From positions 1 through 64,000 of the forward strand of contig JAYWIR010000136.1 in the NCBI GenBank assembly GCA_036172245.1: a stretch of 64,000 nt of DNA, given 5' to 3'. Shown one piece after another: positions 24,008 through 59,842 of the stretch. The notes beneath the pieces are model-generated. The model was not told where the DNA came from, searched no databases, and saw only the letters and a list, made by a program, of their open reading frames with translations. Numbering within the stretch: position 1 is the stretch's first letter; every line of letters starts with the position of its first letter. Source of the stretch: Raillietiella orientalis (lineage: Eukaryota). The position numbers and the translations under genes are program-made.

Positions 24008-24020
24008 GAGATTCCGGAGC

Positions 24021-30095: not shown

Positions 30096-30349
30096 TTTTC
30101 ACCCGGATATGCCGGGGCATTTATTCAAAAGAATAAAATCACAATGGATTGTCGCGTGGTGAACCCAAAGGTCCACCACTACAAAACAGCTTGGTATTTA
30201 CGGGCGCTATGCCGTAGAGGTCCATCCGATCCGCGGGGGTTGGGAAAGAACAAAACAAAAAACAAACAAATAGTTTAAGTATGGGAGGGAGCAAATGTTT
30301 CGGGAATGGGAGGGCAGGGAGGGGATCACCGTGCGGGCGGATAGGTCCT

Positions 30350-33300: not shown

Positions 33301-33898
33301 CGAGGAACATGTGGTCGATGTTCCGATCTCTCCCGGCATCGCCGGCCAACAAGTTGCGCGCATGCATGGCTTCGCACAACTCGTTGACCAGCTGTGCTCG
33401 TCCGCTGGGCGCACCTGCCAGCAGGCGGAGATTGAAATCGCCCGCAATGAGGTGCGCCCTTCGCACGCCTGCTTCGGCCAACCAGTCTCGCCGCAAGGTT
33501 TCGAAGAACGCAGTGCGTTCCTCGGCCCTGTGGCTGCTCACCGGAGCGTACAGGTTCGTGACTACGAGGTCGATCGAGTCGGACCACTTGAACACAAGCT
33601 GCCCAACTCGACCATCCCCGTCGAACCGTGCACTGCGCAGTGAGTTGTCGACGGTTGGCTTTAGCAGAAAGGCCACTCCGCAGAAGTTGTCCGTTCCGTT
33701 CCTCCACAGTAGCCGCCCTCCCGCGATTCTTTCGATTTCCTGGACATCTCCCGGTCGGAGAACGTGCGTCTCTTGCAGGAGCACCAGGTCGAAGTCTCGC
33801 AGTATGGCGGCTACATCTCGCCTCTTTCCGTCGTCGCGCAACCCGTTGACATTCCAACAGGTGATGCGCAAGCGGCGGCAGGAGGCGAGCCCACGCAG
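30350..33898 (-). pseudogene. ORF2 (APE-RT-zinc finger), frameshifted
   Basis: CWNVNG, GDFN, SDH, KAPGEDG and CDRCGEKETFPH motifs; indels clustered at about 31700-32250. Confidence 0.9.
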
Positions 33899-34710
33899 TG
33901 GTGTATTTATGGTGGGGTGGAGGCGGCCTCCTCCCTTTCGGGAGGCGGCTCGTTGGCGGCCGTGACGACGGTCGGCTGCTCACCCGGGAGCACGTCGACA
34001 GCAGCGACCTCCATTGCGCTGGCTTCCGAGACACGGATCGGAGAAGGCTCGCGTGACGCGACGCACATTGCCTCCTCCTCCGTGCCCGATGACATGGGCT
34101 CCTCCACTTGGGAGGAGGCGACACGTCTCGGGCATCCGGCCTTCTTGCCAGCTTTCCTCTTCGGCACGGCTGCGGAAGTAGAGCAACCGGCTTCAGCGTC
34201 GGACCCGGAAGATTCCGGGCCCTTCGCCGTCGCCGGTCGTCTCAAGGCCTTCTTTTCGACCTTGGCAGGCCGCCTGAACATGGCTGCCAGCTCTTCCGCG
34301 GCCTGCTCGAAGGTCGCGTCTTCGATTCGCGCCACCTCCTCGCTTTCCGCACCGACACACGGCGCAGGCGCAATGGAAGCGGCTTCATCGATCGGCGCGC
34401 AGACGTCCTTCGCTGGCAATGCCGGAGCGGCATTGTCGCCAGCTGATGGTGACGTCACTGCGTTTTTACCCGGATATGCCGGGGCATTTATTTAAAAAAA
34501 TAAAAATACATGTAATTTTCGGGTGAAGAACCTGATGGTTCAGCACAAAGCAGCCTGCTTCTTGCCGGTTCTAAACCGGCGAGGTCCTTTGAACGCGCGG
34601 GAACGGGAAGAAAGAAACAAAACAAACAAAAAAATGTAAAAGTTGGAGGGAGTACTTATGTTTGGGAAGGGAGGGCGGGAAGGGAATCACATTGCACGCT
34701 TAAAGGTCCT

Positions 34711-37700
34711 CTAGATCCTGTTCAGGATCTTCACAAGCTGCGTCCGTTGTGCACCCAGGTGTCTCCACCTGCAAATGTTTCTCACAAAAAGGCGAGTCCA
34801 GTGTACCGCATTGCCGCAAGCTTGGCGCCTTCTTCTTGTCGCGTTCCAAGCCGACACGATCCCTCTAATGCAGCAAAGAACTGCCACAGAAGCGGGAGGG
34901 GACAAGGCATCACGCAAGAAGAGTCGCCTAAAAACATCTTTAGGGCCGCCTCCGCGAATGTCCAGGATTGCTGCAAGACGATCCCAGAGAGGGCGGAGAG
35001 CAATGCACTCAATAAGGAGGTGGGGGAATGTCTCTTTCTCCCCGCACCGGTCGCACTGGGAATCCACAGCCCCCCGAGTGGAGTGAGAGAGGCGTGCCTT
35101 GAAGGGTAAACCCCAATGTATCACAAGCAGCGCCACCTCCTGCCATTTCAGGGGGAGAGAGTCACTATTCCAAGACGCTGGGGGCCACTTCATCTCCTCC
35201 GGAGATAGTCCGAGTAGCTCTCCCCAGCGTCGGATTCCGTTGGGCGGGACACTCGGCGTCGCAGCGTCCGCTAGCTGCCGAGATGTCCACGCCTTAATCT
35301 TTTGTGTCCTACTTTTGATGGTGCAGGATACGGTCCATTTCCCCTGCTCCCTGTTGTCTCTAGCGTTTTGTAGGAAGGGCAGCACAGGAGAAAGCGGGGT
35401 TATCAGGGCCCACAGAAGCTGATCGTGGAACTGCACGATCTCCTGTAGCGTCCAGCGGGCGTGCCTTTTTAGGCAAGTGTTTTTTGTGCCCGCCGGAACG
35501 TGAAGCTTTTCCCAAGTGGAGACTGTCTCGTGCAACCATGCCGAGTAGTTCCCTAGGACGCAGGAGATCCAGGTGTTCTTCCGAACCACAACGGCCATGC
35601 GCCGCAGATGAAAGCCGGAGTGTGCTTGTCTGCGGTCGCGCGCCCAGAGAAACGAAGAAAGTCCGCTATATCCTGAGGCTCGCTGGGCCAGAAGTCGTGC
35701 TGGACCGCACCAAGGCGTGTCTTACAATTCCACCGCAAGGACGAGAGTCCTAAACTGAAATTGTACTTCCATGCGCTCCAGCGTAAGTAGGCCAAGTCCA
35801 CCGTCTTTACGTGGAGCGCACAAGTCTTTAAGACGCACACGGGACCTCCCTTTGCCCCAAAGGACTGTCCGTAGGAGGCCCGCTGCTCTTTTCCTGACGA
35901 AATAAGAAGCGGGGCACACAAAAAGTAAAGGGCGTAGAAGGGGGGCCGCAAACGCGTTCCACACTGCGGCCCGTTCCTGCAAGTAAAACTTGCCTTCGTG
36001 AAACGCACCGATCGCCAACGATGCCTTTTGTAGACGGTCGGACCAGGCTTTTGTCACGCAGAATTCCTTCAACGGAACACCAAGGTACTTAAAGCACCTG
36101 CCCGTGGGGATCCCCAAGCGGATCCAGTCCGACCGTCCAGCCCACGCCGAGCCGGTACAAGTTATGGACGACTTCGCCCTGTTCACCTCCAGGCCCGTCC
36201 CGCGGCGCAGCAACTCGAAGAAGTCCACGAGTGCACTCGCCGGGGTGGACCCGGGAAGCAGCAGCAGAAGATCGTCTGCATAGGCCGACACAGCAGGCGT
36301 GCCGGGACACGAGCTCGGCAGGGTTGCCAGAGTTACCCTGTATGCCCTCAGCACCAACTCAAAGTAGATGCTGAAGAGCAAGGGGCTCAGGCTGTCACCC
36401 TGCCGGATGCCGCGGCGCACTGGCACGCCATACACGTGCCGGCCGCTGAAAACAATGTTAATCAACGCGTTGCGTTAGCAGGAGCGCAGGTAGGACTGGA
36501 GCACGGACGGGAATCCCATTCGTTCCAGGAGCTCCAGAAGGAGATCCTGGTCGACGCAGTCGAATGCTTTGCGCAAGTCGACAGCGACGGCGAAGGCTCC
36601 CGCCGATTCCGCCCCACCCTCTACCGGGTCTTTCTGGTCAGAGGGGTGCTCAAGGCTCCCTTGACCGTCCTGTGCAAAGCGCTGTTGCAACTGCCACCAT
36701 GTGCTGGCGAGGAGCAGGTTGGCTTCCATGGTTCGCCCGGGAACAGCGTATGTTTGCTCCGGGCTCATCACGGAATCCGCCACCGGTCCTGAACGCTCAG
36801 CCCACAATTTGGCATACAACTTTGCGTCCGCATTCACCACTGTGATGGGACGCCAGTTGCTAATGTTGCGTAGGTCTCCTGACTTCGGCAGGAGACGTAC
36901 TTTTGCTGATCGGAACGAGGCGGGAACATCGCCGTGTTCGCGGATCAGCGTACTTAGCTTGAGCACCAGGGGAGCAAGCTCTGTCGCGAAGTGTTTGTAA
37001 AACTCCGCGGGCAGGCCGTCCTCCCCTGGTGCCTTTCTTGTCTTTAATTTACTGATGGCGGAGACAATCTCTGCCACCGTAATTGGTTCCGACAACCTGG
37101 AACAAACTTCCTCCCCGATCGCGGGAGCCCCATCCGGCAGCAACTGCTGCGCGAATTGGCACTCGGGTGTTAATGGCGCGTATAAGGAGGAATGAAACTC
37201 CCGCACGATGCGGCTTACCTGAGCTGGCCTGGAGCGTTCTTGGCCCTGATGGTCCAGCAAGCAGGCCGAGCCTGACTGCCAGGCCTGCCTCTCCGCCTCA
37301 GCTTTGAATTCCGCCAGGCGACGAACGTCGGGTCGTCTGGAATACCGGCGGGCCTGAAGGTAGGCTCGCTCGTTGCTGACACCTTCTCCGAAGCCCAAAG
37401 GAAGACGCTCCAGGGGAAACTGTTCGCAAAACTCGCGGACTGAGTACTTCATTTCGTCCCAGTCCGCGAGCGTCTGAAGATGTAATTCTCGCAGGAAGGC
37501 GCGCAGATGTTCCGCCGCTCCTGCGAGGCGCAACCAGTCCCCTGGCAGGCGCCACGTTTTCAGGGGAGGACCCTTGTCGCGCGGATGTAGGTCGAGCACG
37601 AGCCGTGGATGGTCGGACAGCTCTGCCGGGAGCGTTCCACGAGTTCCCACCCGCGTGCACAGGTGGTTGTCGAGAAACATGTGATCGATGTTCCGATCTC

Positions 37701-38267
37701 TCCCGGTATCACCGGCCAACAAGTTGCGCGCATTCATTGCTGCGCACAACTCGTTGACCAGCTGTGCTCGTCTGTTGGGTGCACCTGCTAGCAGGCGGAG
37801 ATTCAAATCGCCCGCAATGAGGTGCGCCTTCCGTACGCCTTCTTCAGCCAGCCAGTCTCGCCGCAGGGATTCGAGGAACGCAGTGCGTTCCTCGGCCCCG
37901 TGGTTGCTCACTGGCGCGTATATGTTCGCCACAACGAGGTCGATCGATTCGGACCACTTGAGAACAAGTTGTCCAACTCGACCGTCCCCGTCGAAGCGAA
38001 CGCTACGCAGAGAGTTTTCGACTGCCGGCTTCAGCAGAAAGCCACTCCGCAGGAGTAGTCTGTTCCGTTCGTCCACAGTAGCCGCCCTCCTGTGATTCTT
38101 TCGAAATCCTGGCCTGCTTCTGTTGTGAGCACGTGAGTCTCTTGCAGTAGGGCCAGGTCGAAGTCTCGCAGAATGGCGGCTACGTCTCGCCTCTTCCCGT
38201 CGCTGCTCAACCCGTTGACAGTCCAACAGGTTATTCGCAAGCGGCTAGAGGAGGCGAGTCCACGCAA
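34711..38267 (-). pseudogene. ORF2 of element I, disrupted
   Basis: All APE, RT and zinc-finger motifs recognisable; frameshift near 38040; stops at about 36475 and 35722. Confidence 0.9.
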
Positions 38268-38275
38268 TGGTGTTG

Positions 38276-40018
38276 TTATGGTGGGGTGGAAGAAACCGCC
38301 TCCTGTTCAGAAGACGGGTGGTCCGGGTCCATGTCGTTGGAGTGTTCAGGGGCATCGCTTACTCCGTCGGCCGTGGACTGTGTTAACAGTTGGTAAAGGA
38401 TGCTCTCAGGCACGGAGTCGCATTGTGCAACGCACATGGACTCTTCCTCGCTGTCAGATGCCATTTCAACCTCTTCCTGAGAGGTGACAGCACGCCTACG
38501 AGCACCTGTTGCATTTTTATGTTTTCTTTTCGGCAAGCCAACGGAGGGCGAGTTCCCGCTTTCGGCGTCAGACTCGGAGGTGTCCGGGTCTTTTGCCGTA
38601 GCCGGGCGTCGAACGGCCTTCTTCTCGGCCTTGACGGGCTGCCTCAGGAAGGCAGCCAACTCTTCCGCGGCTTGCGCGAAGTTTGCATCAGAGATGCGTT
38701 CCACGTCATCACGGATTTCGCCGCCTGTTGGCGAGTCGGGTGACGTAACAACCGATTCGATAGCGGCAACTGGCGCGCTATCGTTCGGAACCGCAGCGGC
38801 TGAGCTTTCGCTCGCCGCTACAACGCTTCCAGTGGACTGGACTGGAACAATAGATTCGATCGCGGCAACGTGTGCCGCGCTATCGATCGCGACCGTAGCG
38901 ATTTCGCCGCACGAAGCCGGAACCGCTCTATCGATCGACGCCGCGGGTGCGGTATCGATCGATGGCTTGCTGGTGGAAGCCTTCGCGGGAACGCGATCGA
39001 TGTGCACGGTGGAACGGCCGACGGTTTTTGCCACCATTTTCACCGTTTTCTTGGGGGCCTTACCTTTCCCTTTGCTTTCCTTCTTTTTCACCAACTGCCA
39101 ACTGTTTTCGGCGACAGTTTCGCCTTCCTCCGGTTTTTGTTCCACTGGCGTCGATATCTCGCCTGTCTGGGAGGTTTCACTCGATTGGGGATCCTGTTTG
39201 TCCGGTTCCTGTGGCGACTCTGTTCTCTTGTTGCCAACAGGAGTGGACGCAAAACGAAGAGGGCACACCTTTCTTACGTGGCCCTTGTTACCGCAGCGTA
39301 GACACACGATGTTGGGGCACCTCCGTTTAAGGTGCCCTGTAGTCTCGCAGTTTCCGCAAAATTTGGGTTTCCCTATGTACCACAGATCAATGTATTCTTC
39401 ATCGACCTGAAGTCGGTGGGGTAAACCACTATCCTCGCGGACTGTCACACGCGCGGCGGCATAGCCACTGAACGCCCTAGTATAGCCCAGGGTGTTCGGC
39501 TTAGCCCACAGAGCGTGGACGGTCCCGTACTTTTCCAGTTCCTGCCTAACGGCATTTTCGCCATTCGCATCGTCAACCCGGTCAGGTGGATGACGATCGA
39601 TTTGTCGGCAGTAAACGGGAAGATCCTTCTCCCGTTCACGGTCACCGGGCATCTCAGCAACTGCTGAGTCATTCCTGCAGTTTTGCAGTTCAGCTCCACT
39701 AGCTGACGCCACTGCGAACGGAAAGGCCGAGAACTTCTTCTTCCGGCACTTTCAGTTTTTAAATTCCGCGGCAAACGTTCTCAACATCGCGGGAGAATAA
39801 AGCCCACCTACCTTATACAGTAGGGCCGGGTTATATCCGTGGGACTCATAGGCCCGCTGTTCCTCGCATGTTGGCGGCGCGGGAGCCGCCACCACCGCAC
39901 TCCAAGACCTCGCCGGGGCGGGGGACGAATCTGTGGGGGAGATGGTTCCCACATCCATGGGCTGAGGGGACAAGGCACGCCCGTCCCCCTTTTCCGCATT
40001 GGCGGTGTCCTCAGGCAT
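38276..40018 (-). pseudogene. ORF1 of element I, frameshifted
   Basis: Inverted near-identical copy of 44621-46366 with a few 1-bp deletions. Confidence 0.9.
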
Positions 40019-40225
40019 TTCTGCCTTCAAAACACCGCCCAAACACCACACAACCTACAACCTCGCGCTAAAACGCAGGAGCAGCAAAAGAAACACGTCT
40101 GCCGTCACTGCGGGCACGACCGGCTCAGGATCGACGGTATCGATCGCCTTTACCGTTACTTTCTTTACGGCTCTGGCGATCGAGACGCGTTCGATCTTCA
40201 CCGTACAAGCGCGGACGACCGTAAA

Positions 40226-41368
40226 TTGAGAGGACGTGTTTTTCGGTGCTTCCGAAAACCGTCTTTTTTGCGAGTGTCGGTGTTTTTCTAGGTGCGGTCG
40301 TTCCTGGGCAGAAATGCCCGAGGACACCGCCGCCACGGCGAAGGGGGGCGAGCGAGCCTCGTCCCCCCAGCCCATGGATGTGGGGGCCATCTCCCCCACG
40401 GAATCGTCCCCCGCCCCGGCGAGGGCTTGGAGCGCGGTGGTGGCGGCGCCTGCGCCGCCCCCCGCAGAGGAACAGCGGGCATACATGGCCGACGGGTATA
40501 ACCCGGCCTTGTTATACAAGGTAGGTGGCCTGTACTCCCCCGCGGTTTTGCGGTCGTTCGCGGCCGAGTTTAAAAAATTAAAAGTCCCGGAGGACGAAGT
40601 CCTCGGACTTTCGGTAAGGAGTGGCGGGCAGCTGGTTGAGCTGAACTGCAAGTCTGCAGGGATGGCTCAGCAGCTGCTCCGCCTGCCGGTGACCGTGAAC
40701 GGTCGAAGAATCTTCCCGTTCACGGCGGAGAACTCCATCGTTGTCCACCTCACCGGTATTACGATGGGAATGGCCAAGACCGCCGTTCGGGAAAGTTTGG
40801 AGAAGTTCGGGACGGTCCACGCGTTGTGGGCAAAACCCAATGTCCTGGGTTACACCAGGGCATTTAGTGGTTACGCCGCTGCGCGCGTGACGGTACGTGC
40901 CGAGGGTGGGCTACCCCACAGACTGCAGGTCGGGGAGGAGGAGATCGACCTGTGGTATGTGGGGGAACCCGTATACTGCGGCTTTTGCCAGGTGTCGGGG
41001 CACCTGAAGAAAAGATGCCCCAACATCGTGTGCTTGGGCTGCGGCGCAAAGGGGCACATCAGGCGGATGTGCCCCAACAGAAAAAGGTCAGTTCCTACAG
41101 GCGCGAGGAAAGCAGACACGCCGAAGGAACAGGACCGAAGCCACGAAATGGCAGAAACCCACCCTGCAGACCAACCCGCTGCTCAGCCATCCACCAGCGA
41201 ACAACCAGCTGGAGAAAGCGCCGAGAACGAGGAAGGTTGGCAGAAGGTGGAGAAGAGGAAAAAGGCCCCGAAGAAGGAGGTCAAACGAATCACCAAGGCG
41301 GCACCGCTGAAGAAGAAGCAGGTGATCCGCGCTTGTTCGGTAAAAATCGAACGCGTGTCGGTCATCGC
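40226..41368 (+). mobile_element. 5' part of an element (subfamily G); ORF1 from 40314, truncated
   Basis: GAGGACGTGTTTTT 5' motif; MPEDTAAT start; CGFCQVSGHLKKRC and CLGCGAKGHIRRMC knuckles. Confidence 0.88.
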
Positions 41369-41586
41369 TCCTCGCCTTGAGCGGTGAGGGCGATTCCGGG
41401 GCGGACGCCCCTGATTCTGTAGGCTGTGGGGGTGGGCAAGCCTCCCCCACACCTACCTCCATCGTGGTGTCCTCAGGCATCGCTGCCATCGGACACCAAC
41501 GATGTTCCACACCAAACAACAATAGAAAAAAAACCGCTTCCTGTCGACTCACTCGGGAGCGAAGGAAACACACGTCCACTCGCCAA
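41369..41586 (-). mobile_element. Short 5'-end fragment with ORF1 start at 41480
   Basis: GGACGTGTGTTT 5' motif; MPEDTTMEVG start. Confidence 0.75.
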
Positions 41587-44526
41587 GGGCTTCGGTGAGG
41601 GTGTCCGGAACGAGCGGGCGTACCTACAGGCGCGCCGTTATTCCCGGCGTCCCGACGTCCGTCGCCTGGCTGAATTCAAGGCTGAGGCGGAGAGGCAGGC
41701 CTGGCAGTCAGGCTCGGCCTGCCTGCTGGATCATCAGGGCCAAGAACGCTCCAGCCCAGCCCAGGTAAGCCGCATCGTGCGGGAGTTTTATTCCTCCTTG
41801 TACGCGCCACTGACACCTGAGCGCCATTTCGCGCAGCGCCTGCTGCCGGATGGCGCTCCCGCGCTCAAGGAGGAGGACCGCTCCAGATTGGCGGAACCGT
41901 TCACGATGGCGGAGATCATCTCCGCCATCAACAGGCTCAAGAGAAGGAAGGCACCAGGGGAGGACGGCCTGCCCGCGGAGTTTTACCATCGCTTCGCGCC
42001 AGAGCTGGCCCCCCTGGTGCTCAGGTTAAGTGCTCTGATCCGCGAACACGGCGAAGTTCCCGCCTCGTTCCGGTCAGCTAAAGTACGTCTCCTGCCGAAG
42101 TCAGGAGACTTACGCAACATTGGCAACTGGCGTCCCATCACAGTAGTGAATGCGGACGCAAAGTTGTATGCCAAGTTGTGGGCTGAGCGTTTGGGGCGGG
42201 TGGCCGCTTCCGTGGTGAGTCCCGAGCAGACCTATGCTGTTCCCGGACGAACCATGGAGGCCAACCAGCTCCTCGCCAGCTCATGGTGGCAGTTGCGACA
42301 ACGCGTTGCACAGGATGGTCAAGGGAGCCTCGCGCCCCCCTCTGACCAAGAAGATCGGGCAGAGGGTGGGATGGACTCGGCGGGAGCCTTTGCCGTCGCG
42401 GTCGATTTGCACAAAGCATTCGACTGCGTCGACCAGGATCTCCTTCTGGAGCTCCTGGAACGCATGGGTTTCCCGGCCGTGCTCCAGTCCTACCTGCGCT
42501 CCTGCTGGCGCAACGCGTCTATGAATATTTGTTTCAGCGGCCGGCACGTGTACGGCGTGCCAGTGCGCCGCGGCATACGGCAGGGTGACAGCCTGAGCCC
42601 CTTGCTCTTCAGCATCTACTTTGAGTTGGTGCTTAGGGCATACAGGGTAACTCTGGCAGCCCTGCCGAGCTCGTGTGCCGGCACGCCTGCCGTGTCGGCC
42701 TATGCAGACGATCTTCTGCTGCTGCTTCCCGGGTCCACTCCGGCGAGTGCGCTCGAGGATTTCTTCGAGTTGCTGCGCCGCGGGACGGGCCTGGAGGTGA
42801 ACAGGGCGAAGTCGTCCATGGTCTTCGTCGGTTCGGCGTGGGCTGGACGGTCGGATTGGATCCGCTTGGGGATCCCCACGGACAGGTGCTTCAAGTACCT
42901 AGGCGTTCCGATGGGGGAATTCTGCGCAGCAGAAGCCTGGTCCGACCGTCTCCAAAAGGCAGCGTTGGCGACCGGTCCGTTCCAAGAAAGCAAGCTTTAC
43001 TTGCAGGAACGGGCCACGGTGTGGAACGCGTTTGCGGCCCCCCTTCTTCGCCCCCTACTTTTTGTGTGCCCCGCCCCTTACTTCATCCGTAAACGAGCAG
43101 CGGGCCTCCTGAGGACAGTCCTTTGGGGCAAAGGGAGGTCCCGTGTGAGGCTCAAAGACTTGTGCGCTCCCCGTAAGGACGGAGGACTTGGCGTTCTTAC
43201 GCTGGAGCGCATTGAACTACAACTCCGGTTCAGGACTCTCGCCCTTGCGGCGGAATTGTGGGACACGCCTTGGTGCGTTCCAGCACGCCTCCTGGCCCAA
43301 CGAGCCTGCGGATTCGACGGACTTTTGTCGTTTCTGCTGGCACGCGACCGCAGAGAAGCACACGGCTGCTTAATCCTGCGTCGCATGGAAGTTGCGGTAC
43401 GGGAGAACGCCTGGATCTCCTGCCGCCCAGGGACCTACTCTGCATGGCTGCACGAGTCAGTGTCCACCTGGGTAAAGATCCACGTTTCGGCGGGCACAAG
43501 AAACACTTGCCTGCAAAGGCACGCCCGCTGGAAACTGCAGGAGATCGTGCAGTCCCACGAATAGCGCATGTGGGCTTTGATAACCCCCCTTGCCCCAGTG
43601 CTGTTCTTCCTCATCGACGCCAGGGACAGTAGGGAGCTTGGGAAATGGTACGTGTCCTGCACCATTGGAGGCAGGACACAAACGATTATGGCGTGGACAT
43701 CTCGGCAGCTAGCGGACGCTGCGACACCGAGAGTCCCGCCTAACGGAATTCGACGCTGGGGCGAGCTACTCGGACTATCTCCGGAGGAGATGAAGTGGCC
43801 CCCGGCGTCCTGGAACAGTGGATCCCTCCCCCTGAAATGGCAGGATGTGGCGTTGCTTGTGGTCCTCTGGGGACTTCCATTCAAAGCACGCCTTCATCAC
43901 ACAACCCGGGGGGCTGTGGATCATTATTGTGACCGGTGCGGGGAAAAAGAGACCTTCCCCCACCTTCTCATCGAGTGCAGTGCCATCCGCCCTTTATGGG
44001 ATCGCCTTACGGCGATCCTGGACTTGCGCGGATGCGGCCCTAAGGACGTTTTTAGGCTCCTCTTCCGTAGTGACGCCTTGTCCCCCCCCTCTTCTGTAGC
44101 AGTCCTCTGCTGCATTCGAGGGATCGTGGCGGCTTGGAACGCCACCAGAAGAAGACGTCAGCCAACTGACAACGCCTTACGGTTCACCCGCCTATTCGTC
44201 CGAGACGTCTGCAAGTGGCGCCACTTGGGCGCAGAGAAGACTCAGCTTGTACGGATCCTAAATAGGATCTAGAGGACCTATCCGCCCGCACGGTGATCCC
44301 CTCCCTGCCCTCCCATTCCCGAAACATTTGCTCCCTCCCATAATTCAACTATTTGTTTGTTTTTTGTTTTGTTCTTTCCCAACCCCCGCGGATCGGATGG
44401 ACCTCTACGGCATAGCGCCCGTAAATACCAAGCTGTTTTGTAGTGGTGGACCTTTGGGTTCACCACGCGACAATCCATTGTGATTTTATTCTTTTGAATA
44501 AATGCCCCGGCATATCCGGGTGAAAA
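41587..44526 (+). mobile_element. 3' two-thirds of a subfamily H element; ORF2 at 41587-44272 with one stop (43562)
   Basis: Begins GFGEGVRNE; YADD and zinc finger; 3' UTR nearly identical to 30096-30350 inverted. Confidence 0.92.
44497..44526 (+). other. Conserved 3'-terminal AATAAA plus CCCGG-N5-CCGGG hairpin (representative copy)
   Basis: aataaatgccccggcatatccgggtgaaaa; 17 copies in the window, a few with stem mutations. Confidence 0.8.
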
Positions 44527-44536
44527 CGCAGTGACG

Positions 44537-44550
44537 GCAGACGTGTTTCT
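44537..44550 (+). promoter_or_regulatory. Conserved 5'-terminal GACGTGT motif (representative copy); putative internal promoter
   Basis: Present within about 10 bp of the 5' end in most subfamilies. Confidence 0.5.
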
Positions 44551-44620
44551 TTTGCTGCTCCTGCGTTTTAGCGCGAGGTTGTAGGTTGTGTGGTGTTTGG
44601 GCGGTGTTTTGAAGGCAGAA

Positions 44621-46366
44621 ATGCCTGAGGACACCGCCAATGCGAAAAAGGGGGACGGGCGTGCCTTGTCCCCTCAGCCCATGGATGTGGGGGCCATCTC
44701 CCCCACAGATTCGTCCCCCGCCCCGGCGAGGTCTTGGAGTGCGGTGGTGGCGGCTCCCGCGCCGCCACCATGCGAGGAACAGCGGGCCTATGAGTCCCAC
44801 GGATATAACCCGGCCCTACTGTATAAGGTAGGTGGGCTTTATTCTCCCGCGATGTTGAGAACGTTTGCCGCGGAATTTAAAAAACTGAAAGTGCCGGAAG
44901 AAGAAGTTCTCGGCCTTTCCGTTCGCAGTGGCGGTCAGCTAGTGGAGCTGAACTGCAAAACTGCAGGAATGACTCAGCAGTTGCTGAGATGCCCGGTGAC
45001 CGTGAACGGGAGAAGGATCTTCCCGTTTACTGCCGACAAATCGATCGTCATCCACCTTACCGGGTTGACGATGCGAATGGCGAAAAATGCCGTTAGGCAG
45101 GAACTGGAAAAGTACGGTACCTTCCACGCTCTGTGGGCTAAGCCGAACACCCTGGGCTATACTAGGGCGTTCAGTGGCTATGCCGCCGCGCGTGTGACAG
45201 TCCGCGAGGATAGTGGTTTACCCCACCGACTTCAGGTCGATGAAGAATACATTGATCTGTGGTACATAGGGAAACCCAAATTTTGCGGAAACTGCGAGAC
45301 TACAGGGCACCTTAAACGGAGGTGCCCCAACATCGTGTGTCTACGCTGCGGTAACAAGGGGCACGTAAGAAAGGTGTGCCCTCTTCGTTTTGCTTCCACT
45401 CCTGTTGGCAACAAGAGAACAGAGTCGCCACAGGAACCGGACAAACAGGATCCCCAATCGAGTGAAACCTCCCAGACAGGCGAGATATCGACGCCAGTGG
45501 AACAAAGACCGGAGGAAGGCGAAACTGTCGCCGAAAACAGTTGGCAGTTGGTGAAAAAGAAGGAAAGCAAAGGGAAAGGTAAGGCCCCCAAGAAAACGGT
45601 GAAAATGGTGGCAAAAACCGTCCGCCGTTCCACCGTGCACATCGATCGCGTTCCCGCGAAGGCTTCCACCAGCAAGCCATCGATCGATACCGCACCCGCG
45701 GCGTCGATCGATAAAGCGGTTCCGGCTTCGTGCGGCGAAATCGCTACGGTCGCGATCGATAGCGCGGCACACGTTGCCGCGAGCGAATCTATTGTTCCAG
45801 TCCAGTCCACTGGAAGCGTTGTAGCGGCGAGCGAAAGCTCAGCCGCTGCGGTTCCGAACGATAGCGCGCCAGTTGCCGCTATCGAATCGGTTCTTACGTC
45901 ACCCGACTCGCCAACAGGCGGCGAAATCCGTGATGACGTGAAACGCATCTCTGATGCAAACTTCGCGCAAGCCGCGGAAGAGTTGGCTGCCTTCCTGAGG
46001 CAGCCCTTCAAGGCCGAGAAGAAGGCCGTTCGACGCCCGGCTACGGCAAAAGACCCGGAAACCTCCGAGTCTGACGCCGAAAGCGGGAACTCGCCCTCCG
46101 TTGGCTTGCCGAAAAGAAAACATAAAAATGCAACAGCTGTTCGTAGGCGTGCTGTCACCTCTCAGGAAGAGGTTGAAATGGCATCTGACAGCGAGGAAGA
46201 GTCCATGTGCGTTGCACAATGCGACTCCGTGCCTGAGAGCATCCTTTACCAACTGTTAACACAGTCCACGGCCGACGGAGTGAGCGATGCCCCTGAACAC
46301 TCCAACGACATGCACCCAAACCACCCGTCTTCTGAACAGGAGGCGGTTTCTTCCACCCCACCATAA
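44621..46366 (+). CDS. Intact ORF1 nucleic-acid-binding (gag-like) protein, 581 aa
   Basis: GCAGAAATG context; knuckles CGNCETTGHLKRRC and CLRCGNKGHVRKVC; low-complexity C-terminal half; no interruptions. Confidence 0.88.
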   Translation: MPEDTANAKKGDGRALSPQPMDVGAISPTDSSPAPARSWSAVVAAPAPPPCEEQRAYESHGYNPALLYKVGGLYSPAMLRTFAAEFKKLKVPEEEVLGLSVRSGGQLVELNCKTAGMTQQLLRCPVTVNGRRIFPFTADKSIVIHLTGLTMRMAKNAVRQELEKYGTFHALWAKPNTLGYTRAFSGYAAARVTVREDSGLPHRLQVDEEYIDLWYIGKPKFCGNCETTGHLKRRCPNIVCLRCGNKGHVRKVCPLRFASTPVGNKRTESPQEPDKQDPQSSETSQTGEISTPVEQRPEEGETVAENSWQLVKKKESKGKGKAPKKTVKMVAKTVRRSTVHIDRVPAKASTSKPSIDTAPAASIDKAVPASCGEIATVAIDSAAHVAASESIVPVQSTGSVVAASESSAAAVPNDSAPVAAIESVLTSPDSPTGGEIRDDVKRISDANFAQAAEELAAFLRQPFKAEKKAVRRPATAKDPETSESDAESGNSPSVGLPKRKHKNATAVRRRAVTSQEEVEMASDSEEESMCVAQCDSVPESILYQLLTQSTADGVSDAPEHSNDMHPNHPSSEQEAVSSTPP

Positions 46367-46374
46367 CAACACCA

Positions 46375-49300
46375 TTGCGAGGAATCGCCTCCTCTAGCCG
46401 CTTGCGAATAACCTGTTGGAACTTCAACGGGTTGACGGCATGCTGGCGACGCGTCGGCGGGCGGTTGCCGCCGCATTCCTCAACTTCGACTGCTTCTTGC
46501 TGGCGCCTCACAACAAGCAGGCGGGGCCAAGTTTGAAAATCACGGGAAGAGGGCGCTGCGGCTACTGGCGGGAGGATGAACGAGACCACTCACCGCGAAT
46601 TGGCGCCTTTCTGCTGAAGCCGGCAGTCGAAAACTCTCTGCGTAGCGTTCGCTTCGACGTGGACGGTCGAGTTGGACAACTTGTTCTCAAGTGGTCCGAA
46701 TCGATCGACCTCGTTGTGACGAACATATACGCGCCAGTGAGCAACCACGGGGCCGAGGAACGCACTGCGTTCCTCGAATCCCTGCGGCGAGACTGGCTGG
46801 CTGAAGCGGACGTACGGAAGGCGCACCTCATTGCGGGCGATTTCAATCTCCGCCTGCTAGCAGGTGCACCCAACCGACGAGCACAGCTGGTCAACGAGTT
46901 GTGCGCAGCAATGAATGCACGCAACTTGTTGGCCGGTGATACCGGGAGAGATCGGAACATCGATCACATGTTTCTCGACAACCACCTGTGCACGCGGGTG
47001 GGAACTCGTGGAACGCTCCCGGCAGAGCTGTCCGACCATCCACGGCTCGTGCTCGACCTACATCCGCGCGACAAGGGTCCTCCCCTGAAAACGTGACGCC
47101 TGCCAGGGGACTGGTTCCGCCTCGCAGGAGCGGCGGAACATCTGCGCGCCTTCCTGCGAGAATTACATCTTCAGTCGCTCGCGGACTGGGACGAAATGAA
47201 GTACTCAGTCCGCGAGTTTTGCGAACAGCTTCCCCTGGAGCGCCTTCCTCCGGGCTTCGGAGAAGGTGTCAGGAACGAGCGAGCCTACCTTCAGGCCCGC
47301 CGGTATTCCAGACGACCCGACGTTCGTCGCCTGGCGGAATTCAAAGCTGAGGCGGAGAGGCAGGCCTGGCAGTCAGGCTCGGCCTGCTTGCTGGACCATC
47401 AGGGCCAAGAACGCTCCAGCCCAGCTCAGGTAAGCCGCATCGTGCGGGAGTTTTATTCCTCCTTATACGCGCCATTAACACCCGAGTGCCAATTCGCGCA
47501 GCAGTTGCTGCTGGATGGGGCTCCCGCGATCGGGGAGGAAGTTTGTTCCAGGTTGTCGGAACCATTTACGGTGGCAGAGATTGTCTCCGCCATCAGTAAA
47601 TTAAAGACAAGAAAGGCACCAGGGGAGGACGGCCTGCCCGCGGAGTTTTACAAACACTTCGCGACAGAGCTGGCTCCCCTGGTGCTCAAGCTAAGTACGC
47701 TGATCCGCGAACACGGCGAAGTTCCCGCCTCGTTCCGATCAGCAAAAGTACGTCTCCTGCCGAAGTCAGGAGACCTACGCAACATTAGCAACTGGCGTCC
47801 CATCACAGTGGTGAATGCGAACGCAAAGTTGTATGCCAAATTGTGGGCTGAGCGTTTAGGACCGGTGGCGGATTCCGTGATCAGCCCGGAGCAAACATAC
47901 GCTGTTCCCGGGCGAACCATGGAAGCCAACCTGCTCCTCGCCAGCACATGGTGGCAGTTGCAACAGCGCTTTGCACAGGACGGTCAAGGGAGCCTTGAGC
48001 ACCCCTCTGACCAGAGAGACCCGGTAGAGGGTGGGGCGGAATCGGCGGGAGCCTTCGCCGTCGCTGTCGACTTGCGCAAAGCATTCGACTGCGTCGACCA
48101 GGATCTCCTTCTGGAGCTCCTGGAACGAATGGGATTCCCGTCCGTGCTCCAGTCTTACCTGCCCTCCTGCTGGCGCAACGCGTTGATTAACATTGTTTTC
48201 AGCGGCCGGCACGTGTATGGCGTGCCAGTGCGCCGCGGCATCCGGCAGGGTGACAGCCTGAGCCCCTTGCTCTTCAGCATCTACTTTGAGTTGGTGCTGA
48301 GGGCATACAGGGTAACTCTGGCAACCCTGCCGAGCTCGTGTCCCGGCACGCCTGCTGTGTCGGCCTATGCAGACGATCTTCTGCTGCTGCTTCCCGGGTC
48401 CACCCCGGCGAGTGCACTCGAGGACTTCTTCGAGTTGCTGCGCCGCGGGACGGGCCTGGAGGTGAACAGGGCGAAGTCGTCCATAACTTGTACCGGCTCG
48501 GCGTGGGCTGGACGGTCGGACTGGATCCGCTTGGGGATCCCCACGGGCAGGTGCTTTAAGTACCTTGATGTTCCGTTGGGGGAATTCTGCCTGACAGAAG
48601 CCTGGTCCGACCGTCTACAAAAGGCATCGTTGGCGATCGGTGCGTTTCACGAAGGCAAGTTTTACTTGCAGGAACGGGCCGCAGTGTGGAACGCGTTTGC
48701 GGTCCCCCTTCTACGCCCTTTACTTTTTGTGTGCCCCGCTTCTTATTTCGTCAGGAAAAGAGCAGCGGGCCTCCTACGGACAGTCCTTTGGGGCAAAGGG
48801 AGGTCCCGTGTGCGTCTTAAAGACTTGTGCGCTCCACGTAAAGACGGTGGACTTGGCCTACTTACGCTGGAGCGCATGGAAGTACAATTTCAGTTTAGGA
48901 CTCTCGCCCTTGCGGCGGAATTGTGGGACACGCCTTGGTGCGGTCCAGCACGACTTCTGGCCCAGCGAGCCTCAGGATATAGCGGACTTTCTTCGTTTCT
49001 CTGGGCGCGCGACCGCAGACAAGCACACTCCGGCTTTCATCTGCGGCGCATGGCCGTTGTGGTTCGGAAGAACACCTGGATCTCCTGCGTCCCAGGGAAC
49101 TACTCGGCATGGTTGCACGAGACAGTCTCCACTTGGGAAAAGCTTCACGTTCCGGCGGGCACAAAAAACACTTGCCTGAAAAGGCACGCCCGCTGGACGC
49201 TACAGGAGATCGTGCAGTCCCACGATCAGCTTCTGTGGGCCCTGATAACCCCGCTTGCTCCTGTGCTGCCCTTCCTACAAAACGCTAGAGACAACAGGGA

Positions 49301-49937
49301 GCAGGGGAAATGGACCGTATCCTGCACCATCAAAAGTAGGACACAAAAGATTAAGGCGTGGACATCTCGGCAGCTAGCGGACGCTGCGACGCCGAGTGTT
49401 CCGCCCAACGGAATCCGACGCTAAGGAGAGCTACTCGGACTATCTCCGGCGGAGATGAAGTGGCCCCCAGCGTCTTGGAATAGTGACTCTCTCCCCCTGA
49501 AATGGCAGGAGGTGGCGCTGCTCGTGATACATTGGGGTTTACCCTTCAAGGCACGCCTCTCTCACTCCACTCGGGGGGCTGTGGATTCCCAGTGCGACCG
49601 GTGCGGGGAGAAAGAGACATTCCCCCACCTCCTTATTGAGTGCATTGCTCTCCGCCCTCTCTGGGATCGTCTTGCAGCAATCCTGGACATTCGCGGAGGC
49701 GGCCCTAAAGATGTTTTTAGGCGACTCTTCTTGCGTGATGCCTTGTCCCCTCCCGCTACTGTGACAGTTCTTTGCTGCATTAGAGGGATCGTGTCGGCTT
49801 GGAACGCGACAAGAAGAAGGCGCCAACCTTGCGGCAATGCTGTACACTGGAGTCGCCTTTTTGTGAGAAACATTTGCAGGTGGAGACACCTGGGTGCACA
49901 ACGGACGCAGCTGGTGAAGATCCTGAACAGGATCTAG
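46375..49937 (+). pseudogene. ORF2 of element I, disrupted
   Basis: Garbled APE start at about 46420-46610; stops at 47094 and 49422; RT motifs intact. Confidence 0.9.
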
Positions 49938-50196
49938 AGGACCTTTCAGCGTGCAATGTGATTCCCTTCCCGCCCTCCCTTCCCAAACATAAGTACTCCC
50001 TCCAACTTTTAAATTTTTTTTCTTTGTTTTGTTTTTTTCTTCCCGTTCCCGCGCGTTGGAAGGACCTCGCCGGTTTAGAACCGGCAAGAAGCAAGCTGCT
50101 TTGTGCTGAACCATCAGGTTCTTCACCCGAAAATTACATGTATTTTTATTTTTTTAAATAAATCCTCCGGCATATCCGGGTAAAAACGCAGTGACG

Positions 50197-53100
50197 TCAC
50201 CATCAGCTGACGACAATGCCGTTCCGGCATTGCCAGCGAAGGACGTCTGCGCGCCGATCGATGAAGCCGCCCCTGTCGCGCCTGCGCAAAGCGTCGGTGC
50301 GGAAAGCGAGGAGGCGGCGCGCATAACGGACGCGACCTTCGCGCAGGCCGCGGAAGAGCTGGCAGCCATGTTACGGCAGCCTGCCAAGGCCGAGAAGAAG
50401 GCCTTGAGACGACCGGCAGCGGTGAAGGGCCCGGAAAATTCCGAGTCCGAAACCGAAGCCGGTTGTTCTACTTCCGCAGCCGTGCCGAAGAGGAAGGCTG
50501 GCAAGAAGACCGGTTGCCCGAGACGGGTCGCCCCTCAACAGGTGGAGGAGGCCATGTCCTCGGGCACGGAGGAGGAGGCAATGTGCGTCGCGCCACGCGA
50601 CCCCTCTGCGATCCGTGTCTCGGAAGCCAGCCCCATGGAAGTCGCTGTGGACGACGTGCTCCCGTGTGAGCAGCCGACCGTCGTCACGGCCGCCAACAAG
50701 CCGCCTCCCGCAAGGGAGGAGGCCGCCTCCACCCCACAATAAACGCATCAGTGTGTGGGCTCGCCTTCTGCCGCCGCTTGCGCATCACCTGTTGGAATGT
50801 CAACGGGTTGCGCGACGACGGAAAGAGGCGAGATGTAGCCGCCATACTGCGAGATTTCCACCTGGTGCTCCTGCAAGAGACGCACGTTCTCCGACCGGGA
50901 GATGTCCCGGAAATCGAAAGAATCGCGAAAGGGCGGCTACTGTGGAGGAACGGAACGGACAACTCCTGCGGAGTGGCCTTTCTGCTAAAGCCAACCGTCG
51001 ACAACTCACTGCGCAGTGCACGGTTCGACGGGGATGGTCGAGTTGGGCAGCTTGTGTTCAAGTGGTCCGACTCGATCGACCTCGTAGTCACGAACCTGTA
51101 CGCTCCGGTGAGCAGCCACAGGGCCAAGGAACGCACCGCGTTCTTGGAATCCGTGCGGCGAGACTGGTTGGCCGAAGCAGGCGTGCGAAGTGCGCACCTC
51201 ATTGCGGGCGATTTCAATCTCTGCCTGCTGGCAGGTGCGCCCAGCGGACGAGCACAGCTGGTCAACGAGTTGTGCGCAGCCATGCATGCGCGCAACTTGT
51301 TGGCCGGCGATGCCGGGAGAGATCGGAACATCGACCACATGTTCCTCGACAACCACCTGTGCACGCGGGTGGGAACTCGAGGAACGCTCCCGGCAGAGCT
51401 GTCCGACCATCCACGGCTCGTGCTTGAGTTACATCCGCGCAATAAGGGCCCTCCCCTGAAAACATGGCGCCTGCCAAGGAATTGGTTGCGCCTCGCAGGA
51501 GCGGCGGAACATCTACGCTGTTTCCTGCGAGGATTCCAGCTTCAGACGCTCGCGGAATGGGACGAAATGAAGTGCTCATTCCGTGAGTTTCGCGACCAGT
51601 TTCCCCTGGAACGTCTTCCGCCGGGCTTCGATGAGGGTGTCAGGAACGAGCGGGCGTACCTCCAGGCGCGCCGTTATTCCCGGCGTCCCGACGTCCGTCG
51701 CCTGGCTGAATTCAAGGCTGAGGCGGAGAGGCAGACCTGGCAGTCAGGCTCGGCCTGCCTGCTGGATCATCAGGGCCAAGAACGCTCCAGCCCAGCCCAG
51801 GTAAGCCGCATCGTGCGGGAGTTTTATTCCTCCTTGTACGCGCCACTAACACCTGAGCGCCATTTCGCGCAGCGCCTGCTGCCGGATGGCGCTGCCGCGC
51901 TCAAGGAGGAGGACCGTTCCAGATTGGCGGAACCTTTCACGATGGCGGAGATCATCTCCGCCATCAACAGGCTCAAGAGAAGGCAGGCACCAGGGGAGGA
52001 CGGCCTTCTTGCGGAGTTTTACCATCGCTTCGCGCCAGAGCTGGCCCCCCTGGTGCTCAGGTTAAGTGCGCTGATCCGCGAACACGGCGAAGTTCCCGCC
52101 TCGTTCCGGTCAGCTAAAGTACGTCTCCTGCCGAAGTCAGGAGACTTACGCAACATTGGCAACTGGCGTCCCATCACAGTAGTGAATGCGGACGCAAAGT
52201 TGTATGCCAAATTGTGGGTTGATCGTTTAGGACCGGTGGCGGATTCCGTGATCAGCCCGGAGCAAACATACGCTGTTCCCGGACGAACCATGGAGGCCAA
52301 CCTGCTCCTCGCCAGCTCATGGTGGCAGTTGCGACAACGCGTTGCACAGGACGGTCAAGGGAGCCTCGCGTCCACCTCTCACCAAGAAGATCGTGCAGAG
52401 GGTGGGATGGACTCGGCGGGAGCCTTTGCCGTCGCGGTCGATTTGCACAAAGCATTCGACTGCGTCGACCAGGATCTCCTTCTGGAGCTCCTGGAACGCA
52501 TGGGTTTCCCTGCCGTGCTTCAATCTTACCTGCGCTCCTGCTGGCGCAACGCGTCAATCAATATCGGTTTCAGCGGCCGGCACGTGTACGGCGTGCCCGT
52601 ACGCCGCGGCATCCGGCAGGGTGACAGCCTGAGCCCCTTGCTCTTCAGCATCTACTTCGAGTTGGTGCTGAGGGCATACAGGGTAACTCTGGCAACCCTG
52701 CCGAGCTCGTGTGCCGGCACGCCTGCCGTGTCGGCCTATGCAGACGATCTTCTGTTGCTGCTACCCGGGTCCACCCCGGCGAGTGCACTCGAGGACTTCT
52801 TCGAGTTGCTGCGCCGCGGGACGGGCCTGGAGGTGAACAGGGCGAAGTCGTCCATGGTCTTCGTCGGTTCGGCGTGGGCTGGACGGTCGGACTGGATCCG
52901 CTTGGGGATCCCCACGGGCAGGTGCTTTAAGTACCTTGGTGTTCCGTTGGGGGAATTCTGCGTGACAGAAGCCTGGTCCGACCGTCTACAAAAGGCATCG
53001 TTGGCGATCGGTGCGTTTCACGAAGGCAAGTTTTACTTGCAGGAACGGGCCGCGGTGTGGAACGCGTTTGCGGCTCCCCTTCTTCGCCCCCCACTTTTTG

Positions 53101-54565
53101 TTTGCCCCGCCCTTTATTTTATTCGGAAACGAGCAGCGGGCCTCCTGAGGACAGTCCTTTGGGGCAAAGGGAGGTCCCGTGTGAGGCTCAAAGACTTGTG
53201 CGCTCCACTTTAGGACGGTGGACCTGGCGTACTTACGCTGGAGCGCATGGAACTACAACTTCGATTCAGGACTCTCGCCCTTGCGGCAGAATTGTGGGGC
53301 ACGCCTTGGTGCGTTCCAGCACGCCTCCTGGCCCAACGAGCCTGCGGAATCGGCGGACTTTTGTCGTTTCTGTCTGCGCGCGTCTGCAGAAGACCATACT
53401 GTGGCTCTATGCTGCGACGCATCTTTGTTGCGGTTCGGGAGAACGCCTGGATCTCCTGCCTCCCAGGGAACTACTCCGCCTGGTTGCACGAGTCAGTCTC
53501 CACCTGGGTAAAGATCCACGTTCCGGCGGGCACAAGGAACACTTGTATGAAAAGGCACGCCCGCTGGACGCTGCAGGAGATCGTGCAGTCCCACTACAAG
53601 CTTCTGTGGGCCTTGATAACCCCCCTCGCCCCAGTGCTGCCCTTCCTTGTGAATGCCAGGGACAGTAGCGAGCAGGGGAAATGGACCGTGTCCTGCACTA
53701 TAGGCGGCAGGACACAATCGCTAAAGGCGTGGACATCCCGGCAGCTAGCTGACGCTGCGACGCCGAGTGTCCCGCCCAACGGAATTCGACGCTGGGGCGA
53801 GCTACTCGGACTATCTCCGGAGGAGATGAAGTGGCCCCCAGCGTCCTGGAACAGTGCATCCCTCCCCCTGAAATGGCAGGATGTGGCGTTGCTTGTGGTC
53901 CTCTGGGGACTTCCATTCAAAGCACGCCTTCATCACACAACCCGGGGGGCTGTGGATCCTTATTGTGACCGGTGCAGGGAAAAAGAGACCTTCCCCCACC
54001 TTCTCATCGAGTGCAGTGCCATCCGCCCTTTATGGGATCGTCTCGCGGCGATCCTGGACTTGCGCGGATGCGGCCCAAAGGACGTTTTCAGGCGCCTCTT
54101 CTGTAGTGACGCCTTGTCCCCGCCCGCTAGTGTAGCAGTCCTCTGCTGCATCAGAGGAATAGTGGCGGCTTGGAACGCCACCAGAAGAAGGCGTCAGCCA
54201 ACCGGCAACGCCTTACACTGGACTCGCGTTTTCGCGCGAAGTGTCTGCAAGTGGCGCCACTTGGGCGCTGAAAGGACTCAGCTTGTGCGGATCCTGAATA
54301 GGATCTAGAGGACCTCTCCACGCGCACCGTGATCCCTTCCCCGCCCTCCCATCCCTACAACATTTGTTCCCCCCCCCACATTTGAACTTTTTGTTTCTTT
54401 TTGTTTTTTTTTATTTCCCATCCTCGCGCATCGGAAGGACCTCTCCGGCACGGAGCCGGTAACCAGCAAGCTGTTATGGAGTGGTGAACCTTCGGGTTCG
54501 CCACGCGACAATTTTTCTGTTAGTTTATTTCTATGAAATAAATGCCCCGGCACATCCGGGTGTGA
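50197..54565 (+). mobile_element. H/G-type element: ORF1 C-terminus (to 50742), ORF2 and 3' UTR
   Basis: Resumes after the TSD at VTSPSADD; ends aaataaatgccccggcacatccgggtgtga. Confidence 0.9.
50751..54308 (+). pseudogene. Near-intact ORF2 (APE-RT-zinc finger, ~1185 codons), one in-frame TAG at 53211-53213
   Basis: The 820-aa and 353-aa ORFs are in the same frame; all catalytic motifs are present. Confidence 0.92.
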
Positions 54566-54574
54566 ACGACCGTA

Positions 54575-54726
54575 TTTCCCATCCCCGCGCATCGGAAGGA
54601 CCTCTCCGGCACGGAGCCGGTAACCAGCAAGCTGTTATGGAGTGGTGAACCTTCGGGTTCGCCACGCGACAATTTTTCTGTTAGTTTATTTCTATGAAAT
54701 AAATGCCCCGGCACATCCGGGTGTGA
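54575..54726 (+). repeat. Tandem copy of the terminal ~150 bp of the 3' UTR
   Basis: Nearly identical to 54414-54565; separated by acgaccgta. Confidence 0.92.
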
Positions 54727-54737
54727 ACGACCGTAAA

Positions 54738-54926
54738 GTGAGAGGACGTGTTTTTCGGTGCTTCCGAAAACCGTCTTTTTTGCGAGTGTCGGTGTTTTTC
54801 TAGGTGCGGTCGTTCCTGGGCAGAAATGCCCGAGGACACCGCCACCACGGCGAAGGGGGGCGAGCGAGCCTCGTTCCCCCAACCCATGGATGTGAGGGCC
54901 ATCTCCCCCACGGATTCGGGTGTGAA
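54738..54926 (+). mobile_element. Subfamily G 5' end fused to a 10-nt 3' terminus (mini-element)
   Basis: Matches 40226-40405, then cgggtgtgaa at 54917-54926. Confidence 0.7.
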
Positions 54927-59829: not shown

Positions 59830-59842
59830 GAGAATCCGGAGC

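Follow-up and report, generated by a model that had tools for sequence, protein, structure and literature searches.

Two LINE subfamilies abut the same nucleotide of a target duplication inside a sister element in DNA of Raillietiella orientalis

How does the complete 3' end of one retrotransposon come to stand directly in front of the target-site duplication of another? The question is raised by position 44527 of the stretch analysed here (the window: 64,000 nucleotides of DNA from Raillietiella orientalis, contig JAYWIR010000136.1 of GenBank assembly GCA_036172245.1, positions 1 to 64,000 of the forward strand), where a long interspersed nuclear element (LINE) of one subfamily, H, is separated by exactly 10 nucleotides (nt) from a LINE of another subfamily, I. 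The whole 64 kb consists of related retrotransposons of the type without long terminal repeats (non-LTR), nested in one another, with a G+C content of 54–63% in 2 kb steps; the window is almost wholly made up of repeats with 65–99% identity and contains no N letters. The first open reading frame (ORF1) of these elements carries CCHC knuckles, and the second (ORF2) carries an endonuclease (EN) of the apurinic type (APE type), a reverse transcriptase (RT) and a C-terminal zinc-binding region. One such frame, at 15688–18342 on the minus strand, matches PF03372 at 2.6e-11 and PF00078 at 9.6e-20. With EN and RT together in ORF2, the elements of the window are APE-type non-LTR retrotransposons, that is, LINEs.

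The 10 nt in question, CGCAGTGACG (cgcagtgacg; T in the following), have four exact matches in the window, at 34453–34462 and 40103–40112 on the minus strand and at 44527–44536 and 50187–50196 on the plus strand. Shuffled sequence gave a mean of 0.15 matches, and four were reached in 0 of 100 shuffles. Each of the four copies lies at an end of an I element, and together they are the flanks of two elements of 5.65 kb, I1 and I2. The features around them are as follows.

41587–44526, plus strand: Hb, the 3' part of an H-type LINE from the EN–RT linker of ORF2 to the 3' terminus, 97.9% identical to Ha over 2954 nt, with RVT_1 in the ORF at 41906–43564; its terminal hairpin is at 44507–44521 and its 5-nt tail, gaaaa, at 44522–44526
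44527–44536, plus strand: upstream copy of T, cgcagtgacg, with the Hb tail before it and the I2 5' end behind it
44537–50186, plus strand: I2, a full-length I-type LINE with a 5' untranslated region (5' UTR), ORF1 (CCHC) at 44621–46366, ORF2 (EN with an in-frame stop, then RT) and AATAAA; hairpin at 50167–50181, tail aaaaa
50187–50196, plus strand: downstream copy of T, followed by the remainder of an H ORF1 (AVTSPSADDNAVP...)
50197–54566, plus strand: Hc, the H-type host, from ORF1c to the 3' terminus; hairpin at 54547–54561, tail gtgaa at 54562–54566
34463–40102, minus strand: I1, the second I copy, with T at 34453–34462 and 40103–40112 as its flanks
30096–34452, minus strand: Ha, H-type, from ORF1c to the 3' terminus, with tail gaaaa at 30096–30100; the half of the host downstream of I1
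40113–40220, minus strand: H-type ORF1b piece upstream of I1 (...VVRACTVKIERVS...VVP), ending in cgcggacgacc (T1, 40210–40220 in plus-strand numbering) and adjoining the 5' end of element X

RVT_1 was detected in ORFs of I2, Hb and Hc, and the EN could be aligned in Ha, Hc, I1 and I2. Around I1 the minus-strand frame of the host gives ...VKIERVSIARAVKKVTVKAIDTVDPEPVVPAVT as it enters the upstream T and resumes from the downstream T with AVTSPSAGDNAAP..., in a layout that parallels the ORF1 of I itself. Because the frame of the host ORF1 runs into the upstream copy and on from the downstream copy, T is a genuine 10-bp target duplication of I, lying in the linker of an H-type ORF1, as an earlier reading made from the sequence alone had proposed.

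Upstream of I2 there is no ORF1. Its place is taken by the 2.94 kb of Hb, the last 200 nt of which agree with the end of Ha (30096–30295) at 198 of 200 positions. The tail of Ha is bounded by ggtcgtccgcg (30085–30095), part of an ORF1 of the opposite strand, and this fixes the last base of the H terminus (...GGGTgaaaa). The complete H tail, gaaaa, ends at 44526, and the next base, 44527, is the C with which T begins; the I tails, aaaaa, stop directly before that C of T as well, at 50186/50187 and at 34463/34462. Two neighbours of the same orientation are found exactly T apart (Hb tail, cgcagtgacg, I2 5' end; 44522–44540). Both of these observations, an H 3' end in place of the host ORF1 before the upstream T and two kinds of 3' terminus against one nucleotide, had been made in the sequence-only reading and are confirmed here. 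On its downstream side the array is bounded by T and then ORF1c (from 50187); on its upstream side an antisense fragment M, the element X and an antisense ORF1b are found instead of host sequence and T, the block being rearranged.

We read this arrangement, with a probability of roughly 0.55, as the product of two integrations at the same phosphodiester, which made the succession H tail, T, I, in a sequence-specific and self-targeting family of APE-type LINEs. In such a nest of close relatives the endonucleases would nick defined sequences inside sister copies, T in the low-complexity linker of the H ORF1 among them. The bottom-strand nick would fall immediately 5' of the C that opens T, the top-strand nick 10 nt downstream, and each integration would leave the new copy flanked by T. 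Half of the original context would be kept by each copy of T, so that the site would stay usable, and a second integration at the same phosphodiester would give a head-to-tail pair exactly T apart. I would have used T in two different H hosts, and Hb and I2 would both have used it in one host, in either order; the outcome would be H tail, T, I, T and the remainder of ORF1. A later inversion between inverted repeats, most simply I1 and I2, together with one internal deletion, would then have removed the upstream half of the host and turned the segment.

The sequence-only reading had itself set a crossover within the terminal hairpin shared by H and I against its claim. Such a crossover would give an I-type tail (aaaaa) with ORF1 behind T; what is found is an H-specific g at 44522, where I has a, and behind T the 5' end of I. 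It would also need a prior I–T–I tandem, which would itself be a case of site reuse. The objection fails on these grounds, and we rejected the crossover.

The two I copies lie in two arms, 30100–40112 and 44527–54562, which start at T and end at H 3' ends; they form a 10 kb inverted repeat with 94.8% identity and are 4.4 kb apart. A read-through retrocopy of T–I–T–H as the source of an arm was rejected, since the sequences before I and behind the H end differ in both arms. I1 and I2 differ by 146 substitutions and 42 gap columns in 5666 columns. Over the last 837 nt of the I copies there are 21 differences (2.5%) and in T there are none, compared with 66 (10.1%) in the 654 nt of adjoining host sequence (Fisher p = 5e-10); between the arms, the host flank is 89% identical over its first 299 nt. 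Since the H hosts differ far more from each other than the I copies do, the simplest reading of these differences is that I is younger than the split of the two hosts and struck T at least twice. The endonuclease frame is damaged in both copies, by an in-frame stop in I2 (46605–47300) and by a frame change in I1 (37200–38267), and to judge from their frames neither is autonomous as it stands.

Repeated use of one position is also seen at a second hot spot, T2, where an element has entered ORF2 in antisense.

7866–7892, minus strand: T2, first instance; the host ORF2 (plus strand) stops at 7872 after ttcggcg, followed by the antisense tail of element K1, ggcat at 7873–7877, and its hairpin at 7878–7892
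9502–9530, minus strand: T2, second instance; the host ORF2 (plus strand) stops at 9508 after ttcggcg, followed by the antisense tail of element k9, gataa at 9509–9513
56303–56331, minus strand: T2, third instance; the host ORF2 (plus strand) stops at 56309 after ttcggcg, followed by the antisense tail of element k56, gatga at 56310–56314

All three plus-strand copies of ORF2 stop after the same TTCGGCG in the EN–RT linker (7872, 9508 and 56309), and in each case the tail and hairpin of another element come next, in antisense. The inserts k9 and k56 are 91.2% alike and their hosts 67.2% alike; on this comparison k9 and k56 are separate integrations at one position. Hb also starts (41587) at this linker position, 11 nt away on the other side, behind the antisense 5' end of M (41576–41600), and from this the T2 duplication is estimated at 11 nt. 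Six other copies of ORF2 in the window are uninterrupted at the position, so the site is not always filled. Twin priming was considered for the pattern of sense 5' and antisense 3' parts and was rejected, since the 3' terminus is found on the inner side, at the break, and not at the outer edge. Independent copies are thus found at the same nucleotide of a multicopy target in three hosts for T2 and in two I copies for T, and as far as the sequence comparisons go independent reuse of a site is a property of the LINE family in the window. The sequence-only reading had claimed more than this, namely that two subfamilies inserted at the same base. The abutment of both on one nucleotide stands, as does site reuse as a habit of the family; the part that did not stand as claimed is Hb's own integration at T, for which we give only the probability stated above.

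The 3' ends themselves were collected with an nhmmer profile built from ten of them, which at E <= 10 retrieved 17 ends in the window (weakest E = 3e-05). All 17 have AATAAA, a 5-bp hairpin CCCGG...CCGGG with a variable loop and then a 5-nt tail, the boundaries of the tail being our own reading (for example gaaaa, aaaaa, gtgaa and ggcat); long poly(A) was found at none of the 17. The hairpin was predicted in four of the five ends that were folded, and the structure of the 3' end is conserved across subfamilies. Collapsed by eye, the 17 end flanks represent 11 distinct sites, four of which begin with CGC: T (CGCAGTGACG), T1 (CGCGGACGACC), T2 (CGCCGAAACC) and the site of an element K2 (CGCCGCCTTC). 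With a CGC frequency of 0.026 in the window this gives p = 1.4e-4; one further site, the fifth, begins with CGA. The duplications measure 10 nt for T, up to 11 nt for T1 and, by estimate, up to 11 nt for T2. Over 225 amino acids the EN domains of the two subfamilies H and I show 84% identity, which makes a common target specificity plausible, and a shared nick preference combined with longer recognition specific to each subfamily would fit the target data. Two K-type 3' ends, 5252–5261 and 7868–7877 (minus strand), have the same ten letters, ggcatcgccg, behind them and then different sequence; this could be the 5-nt tail plus a shared target start CGCCG, or a short flank carried along.

Around the junction the order of the pieces has been disturbed, and the following features bear on how.

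29991–30095, plus strand: W, a fragment of an H-type ORF1 (ORF1a), with ggtcgtccgcg (T1', 30085–30095) at its end and the antisense tail of Ha behind it
40215–41360, plus strand: X, an H-like 5' UTR and ORF1 (40314–41390), with 5' end acgaccgtaaattgagagg; 96.9% identical to X2 (54727–54918)
41362–41586, minus strand: M, the 5' fragment of an antisense element (5' UTR and about the first 38 codons of ORF1), its 5' terminus adjoining Hb at the ORF2 linker site
54567–54735, plus strand: a second copy of the Hc 3' end, 161–163 nt, bounded by (ga)acgaccgta and followed by the 5' end of X2

The sequence cgcggacgacc (CGCGGACGACC) forms an inverted pair at 30085–30095 and 40210–40220 and bounds a block of 10 kb. 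The first copy marks the change from W (plus strand) to the antisense tail of Ha, the second that from the antisense ORF1b to the 5' end of X. Put together, W and ORF1b read as a single uninterrupted ORF1 (...KKQKPVVRACTVKIERVS...). Because the pieces beside the two copies share one frame, the pair points to both junctions of a single integration, antisense to an H ORF1, which the inversion of a segment has brought face to face. Candidates for the repeats that recombined are I1 with I2 and Ha with Hb. We rank the first above the second: inversion between I1 and I2 would give a host composed of W, ORF1b, T–I–T and Hc, bounded by cgac/gaacgac at 29989–29995 and 54564–54570. Inversion between Ha and Hb would fit the cgcggacgacc pair equally well, but gives no host duplication. 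Either version would leave one junction of H tail, T and I, on the assumption of a deletion between X (to about 41360) and M. As to 5' truncation, it is seen in W, which starts at 29991, and possibly in the 161–163-nt copy at 54573–54735; with the 10-bp duplication around I1 it makes up the pair of marks that target-primed reverse transcription leaves. The stretches 54412–54574 and 54573–54735 are 99.4% identical over 163 nt, the second being a copy of the Hc 3' end placed behind the full one; (ga)acgaccgta follows both, and ACGACCGTA has three matches compared with 0.20 expected. This copy may be a 5'-truncated H at the same nick, and so a possible second case of reuse, or a duplication by slippage.

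With so much movement in the region, a rearrangement after insertion might have placed an H 3' end beside T without any integration being recorded there, whether by ectopic recombination, end joining or gene conversion. The inverted cgcggacgacc pair, which encloses a block with both ends in a single ORF1, is in keeping with this, as are the 10 kb inverted arms at 94.8% identity and the mosaic identity between H copies. To give the junction observed, however, the break would have to lie precisely behind the final A of a full H tail and before the opening C of T, no base being lost or gained, and homology with an I end exists only upstream of the H-specific g at 44522, or over the 14 nt aaaacgcagtgacg; a crossover in the hairpin would leave an I-type tail and an ORF1 behind T, neither of which is present. 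We regard an origin by rearrangement as improbable. A trivial cause would be mis-assembly, with an H 3' end falsely joined to a T–I 5' end that is not adjacent to it, and a window made nearly entirely of repeats (65–99% identity) invites this suspicion. The junction was checked with short Logan contigs from sequencing runs, which have a depth of about 2–19 in the bins around the junction; the best run, with 0.60 of the words, may be the source sample. The contigs are short, at about 6×, and among those listed over 43000–51000 none bridges 44526/44537, a result that covers the listed pieces only and is not evidence of absence; one of them, 44189–44529 over the H end, departs from the window after 44529, in a way that fits the Ha junction. 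A false join needs a shared stretch, though, and the two sides have only the 10-mer in common; the inverted arms are 95% and not 100% alike and lie 4.4 kb apart, which argues against a fold-back chimera, and no run of N marks a gap. Both of these explanations lose weight because the join is exact to the base, and mis-assembly we consider very improbable indeed.

A further account of the same junction would dispense with the second integration. In a template jump, an I RNA with T at its 5' end would be reverse transcribed and the enzyme would jump from there to the 3' end of an H RNA; integration would be single, and H would never have nicked T. The I RNA would start about 10 nt upstream of gcagacgtg, T being copied from the donor and later aiding the annealing of the 5' junction. 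Template jumping by LINE reverse transcriptases is cited in excerpts of PMC2718515. A 3' end set head-to-tail against a 5' end is a frequent sight in the window: by our own count 6 of the 17 3' ends lie within 0–10 nt of a 5' UTR on the same strand (3930, 24000, 44521, 54561, 54722 and 59822), with the reservation that 54561 qualifies only via the copy behind it and that 24000 and 59822 are copies of one composite. The leader of I before GACGTGT, counted by eye, measures 13 nt with T, comparable to the 10–27 nt of X, M and N, and 3 nt without it; nor does this account need a lost upstream T on the 5' side of H. Against this, had the whole block between the cgcggacgacc copies arisen in one event, two RNAs would have to be covered by a complementary DNA of about 14 kb. 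Hc also seems to own a short duplication beside the 5' end of X2, which points to separate integrations at 5' boundaries and not to co-insertion, and a start of the I RNA at T is conjectural. On balance a template jump seems to us rather unlikely.

The two-integration reading has its own difficulties. The H element that ends at 44526 has neither T nor the host ORF1b on its 5' side, where antisense M, X and antisense ORF1b are found; because the upstream T and ORF1b are lacking before Hb, the model needs one deletion and one inversion. The duplication that backs an inversion between I1 and I2 is weak, consisting of cgac, or of gaacgac if three letters of the tail are counted, and the upstream ORF1b piece has no second copy in the window. 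H-type 3' ends use three targets here (T, cgcggacgacc and cgaccgta), and with at least three in use H is not strictly T-specific. There are two H-type T sites in the window and both are filled, an empty site not being seen there. The age argument is also exposed, for along the H flanks identity varies as a mosaic, from 77 to 98% per 200-nt window, and two 250-nt bins, 46287–46786 (end of ORF1 to start of ORF2), hold 101 of the 188 differences between I1 and I2, which suggests a patch of other origin, brought in by gene conversion or present in a recombinant element. The mosaic of H and the divergent patch in I together indicate that gene conversion acts in the nest, and it could have homogenized two old I copies.

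Tandem insertion at one site has a precedent in R1. Excerpts of the study by Stage and Eickbush (2009; PMC2718515) describe tandem R1 elements in Drosophila 28S ribosomal DNA, with the copies at the normal site and a 14-bp duplication between them, and explain them by a new copy entering the duplication that lies 5' of an R1 already in place; in D. ananassae, the R1A tandem copies are all upstream of R1B. As far as those excerpts go, the elements of the window resemble R1 in being APE-type and sequence-specific, in having copies of one orientation exactly one target duplication apart, and in that two lineages can share a site; the likeness meant is one of behaviour. In the case at hand it is a sister LINE, in the linker of its ORF1, that serves as target in place of a host ribosomal RNA gene; the duplication is 10 nt and not 14, and the window holds a single such pair, the upstream host half of which is missing. 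Tandem use of one site by two lineages is thus already known from R1, and the difference lies in the target, namely coding parts of sister LINEs at several sites, by which the family comes to be nested in itself.

According to the introduction of PMC4640811, target-specific APE-type LINEs are for the most part members of the R1 and Tx1 clades, with transposons among the targets listed for them. On that description they share with the present elements the APE endonuclease, the RT, an ORF1 with CCHC and the repeated use of one nucleotide in a multicopy target. The targets here differ in being coding parts of the elements' own relatives, on both strands, with at least three sites used by different subfamilies within 64 kb. 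The target of Tx1L is a DNA transposon. A resemblance of another kind is to Zepp, which in the excerpt of PMC3446292 has 61% GC and a propensity to cluster that is stated and not explained there. Zepp and ZeppL form nested islands made only of LINEs in green algae, and the parts of the reports that were available give no mechanism for the clustering (PMC3446292; 10.1101/2020.06.13.149070; 10.1101/2025.03.28.645958; PMC9940879). As described in those parts, they have in common with the window (54–63% GC) that LINE-only clusters are nested and GC-rich, a likeness of description that can serve as a lead. Zepp, an L1-clade LINE, has a poly(A) tail, whereas the ends in the window consist of AATAAA, a 5-bp hairpin and a 5-nt tail without long poly(A), on elements of 5.65 kb.

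A narrow literature search, with most subscription journals outside its scope, found no description of LINEs that home into defined sites of sister LINEs. We put forward, tentatively, that the family may have made its own relatives its safe harbour, the endonucleases of the subfamilies nicking different sites in sister elements and building LINE-only islands in this way. The sites concerned, which we name with the same reserve, would be the ORF1 linker in sense, ORF1 in antisense, the EN–RT linker of ORF2 in antisense and the 5' boundaries, with a CGC start and a stagger of 10–11 nt. Site-specific LINEs are known for host multicopy genes and for simple repeats; a family homing on itself, if real, would explain how LINE-only islands grow without damage to genes. 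The safe-harbour idea, if correct, would supply a mechanism, at the level of sequence, by which Zepp-like LINEs come to cluster at algal centromeres, a clustering so far unexplained. It would also mean that nature provides a set of endonucleases that are close in sequence (84% for H and I) and possibly different in target, of use in studying the evolution of APE-type specificity. The clustering question is testable if the host has LINE-based centromeres, and the importance of the case would rise if self-targeting proves systematic genome-wide.

The nearest proteins in the databases searched are one metagenome protein at 63% identity and, for the remainder, matches of at most 30%; homologue and atlas protein searches returned no family name beyond RT and EN and no informative names, and there were no Rfam matches in the window. 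A metagenome pattern scan gave no locus with the exact H/I end; with a degenerate family end it gave eight loci, none BLAST-similar to the window, which appear to be unrelated.

Two smaller observations concern the 5' ends. Different subfamilies have GACGTGT with a thymine-rich run 3–27 nt from their 5' ends (40236, 44547, 54748, 41568 on the minus strand, 12539, 24033 and 59857), and this shared motif of the 5' UTRs may be a promoter or initiator element. Recognition of the motif at a fixed distance was rejected, the distance from nick to motif ranging from 6 to 23 nt. A P-type 3' end stands directly before an N-type 5' UTR and ORF1 in a composite that occurs twice, at 23346–25174 and 59168–60998, with 93% identity between the two; a third N copy, at 12513–13883 (92%), has another upstream neighbour, an antisense ORF2.

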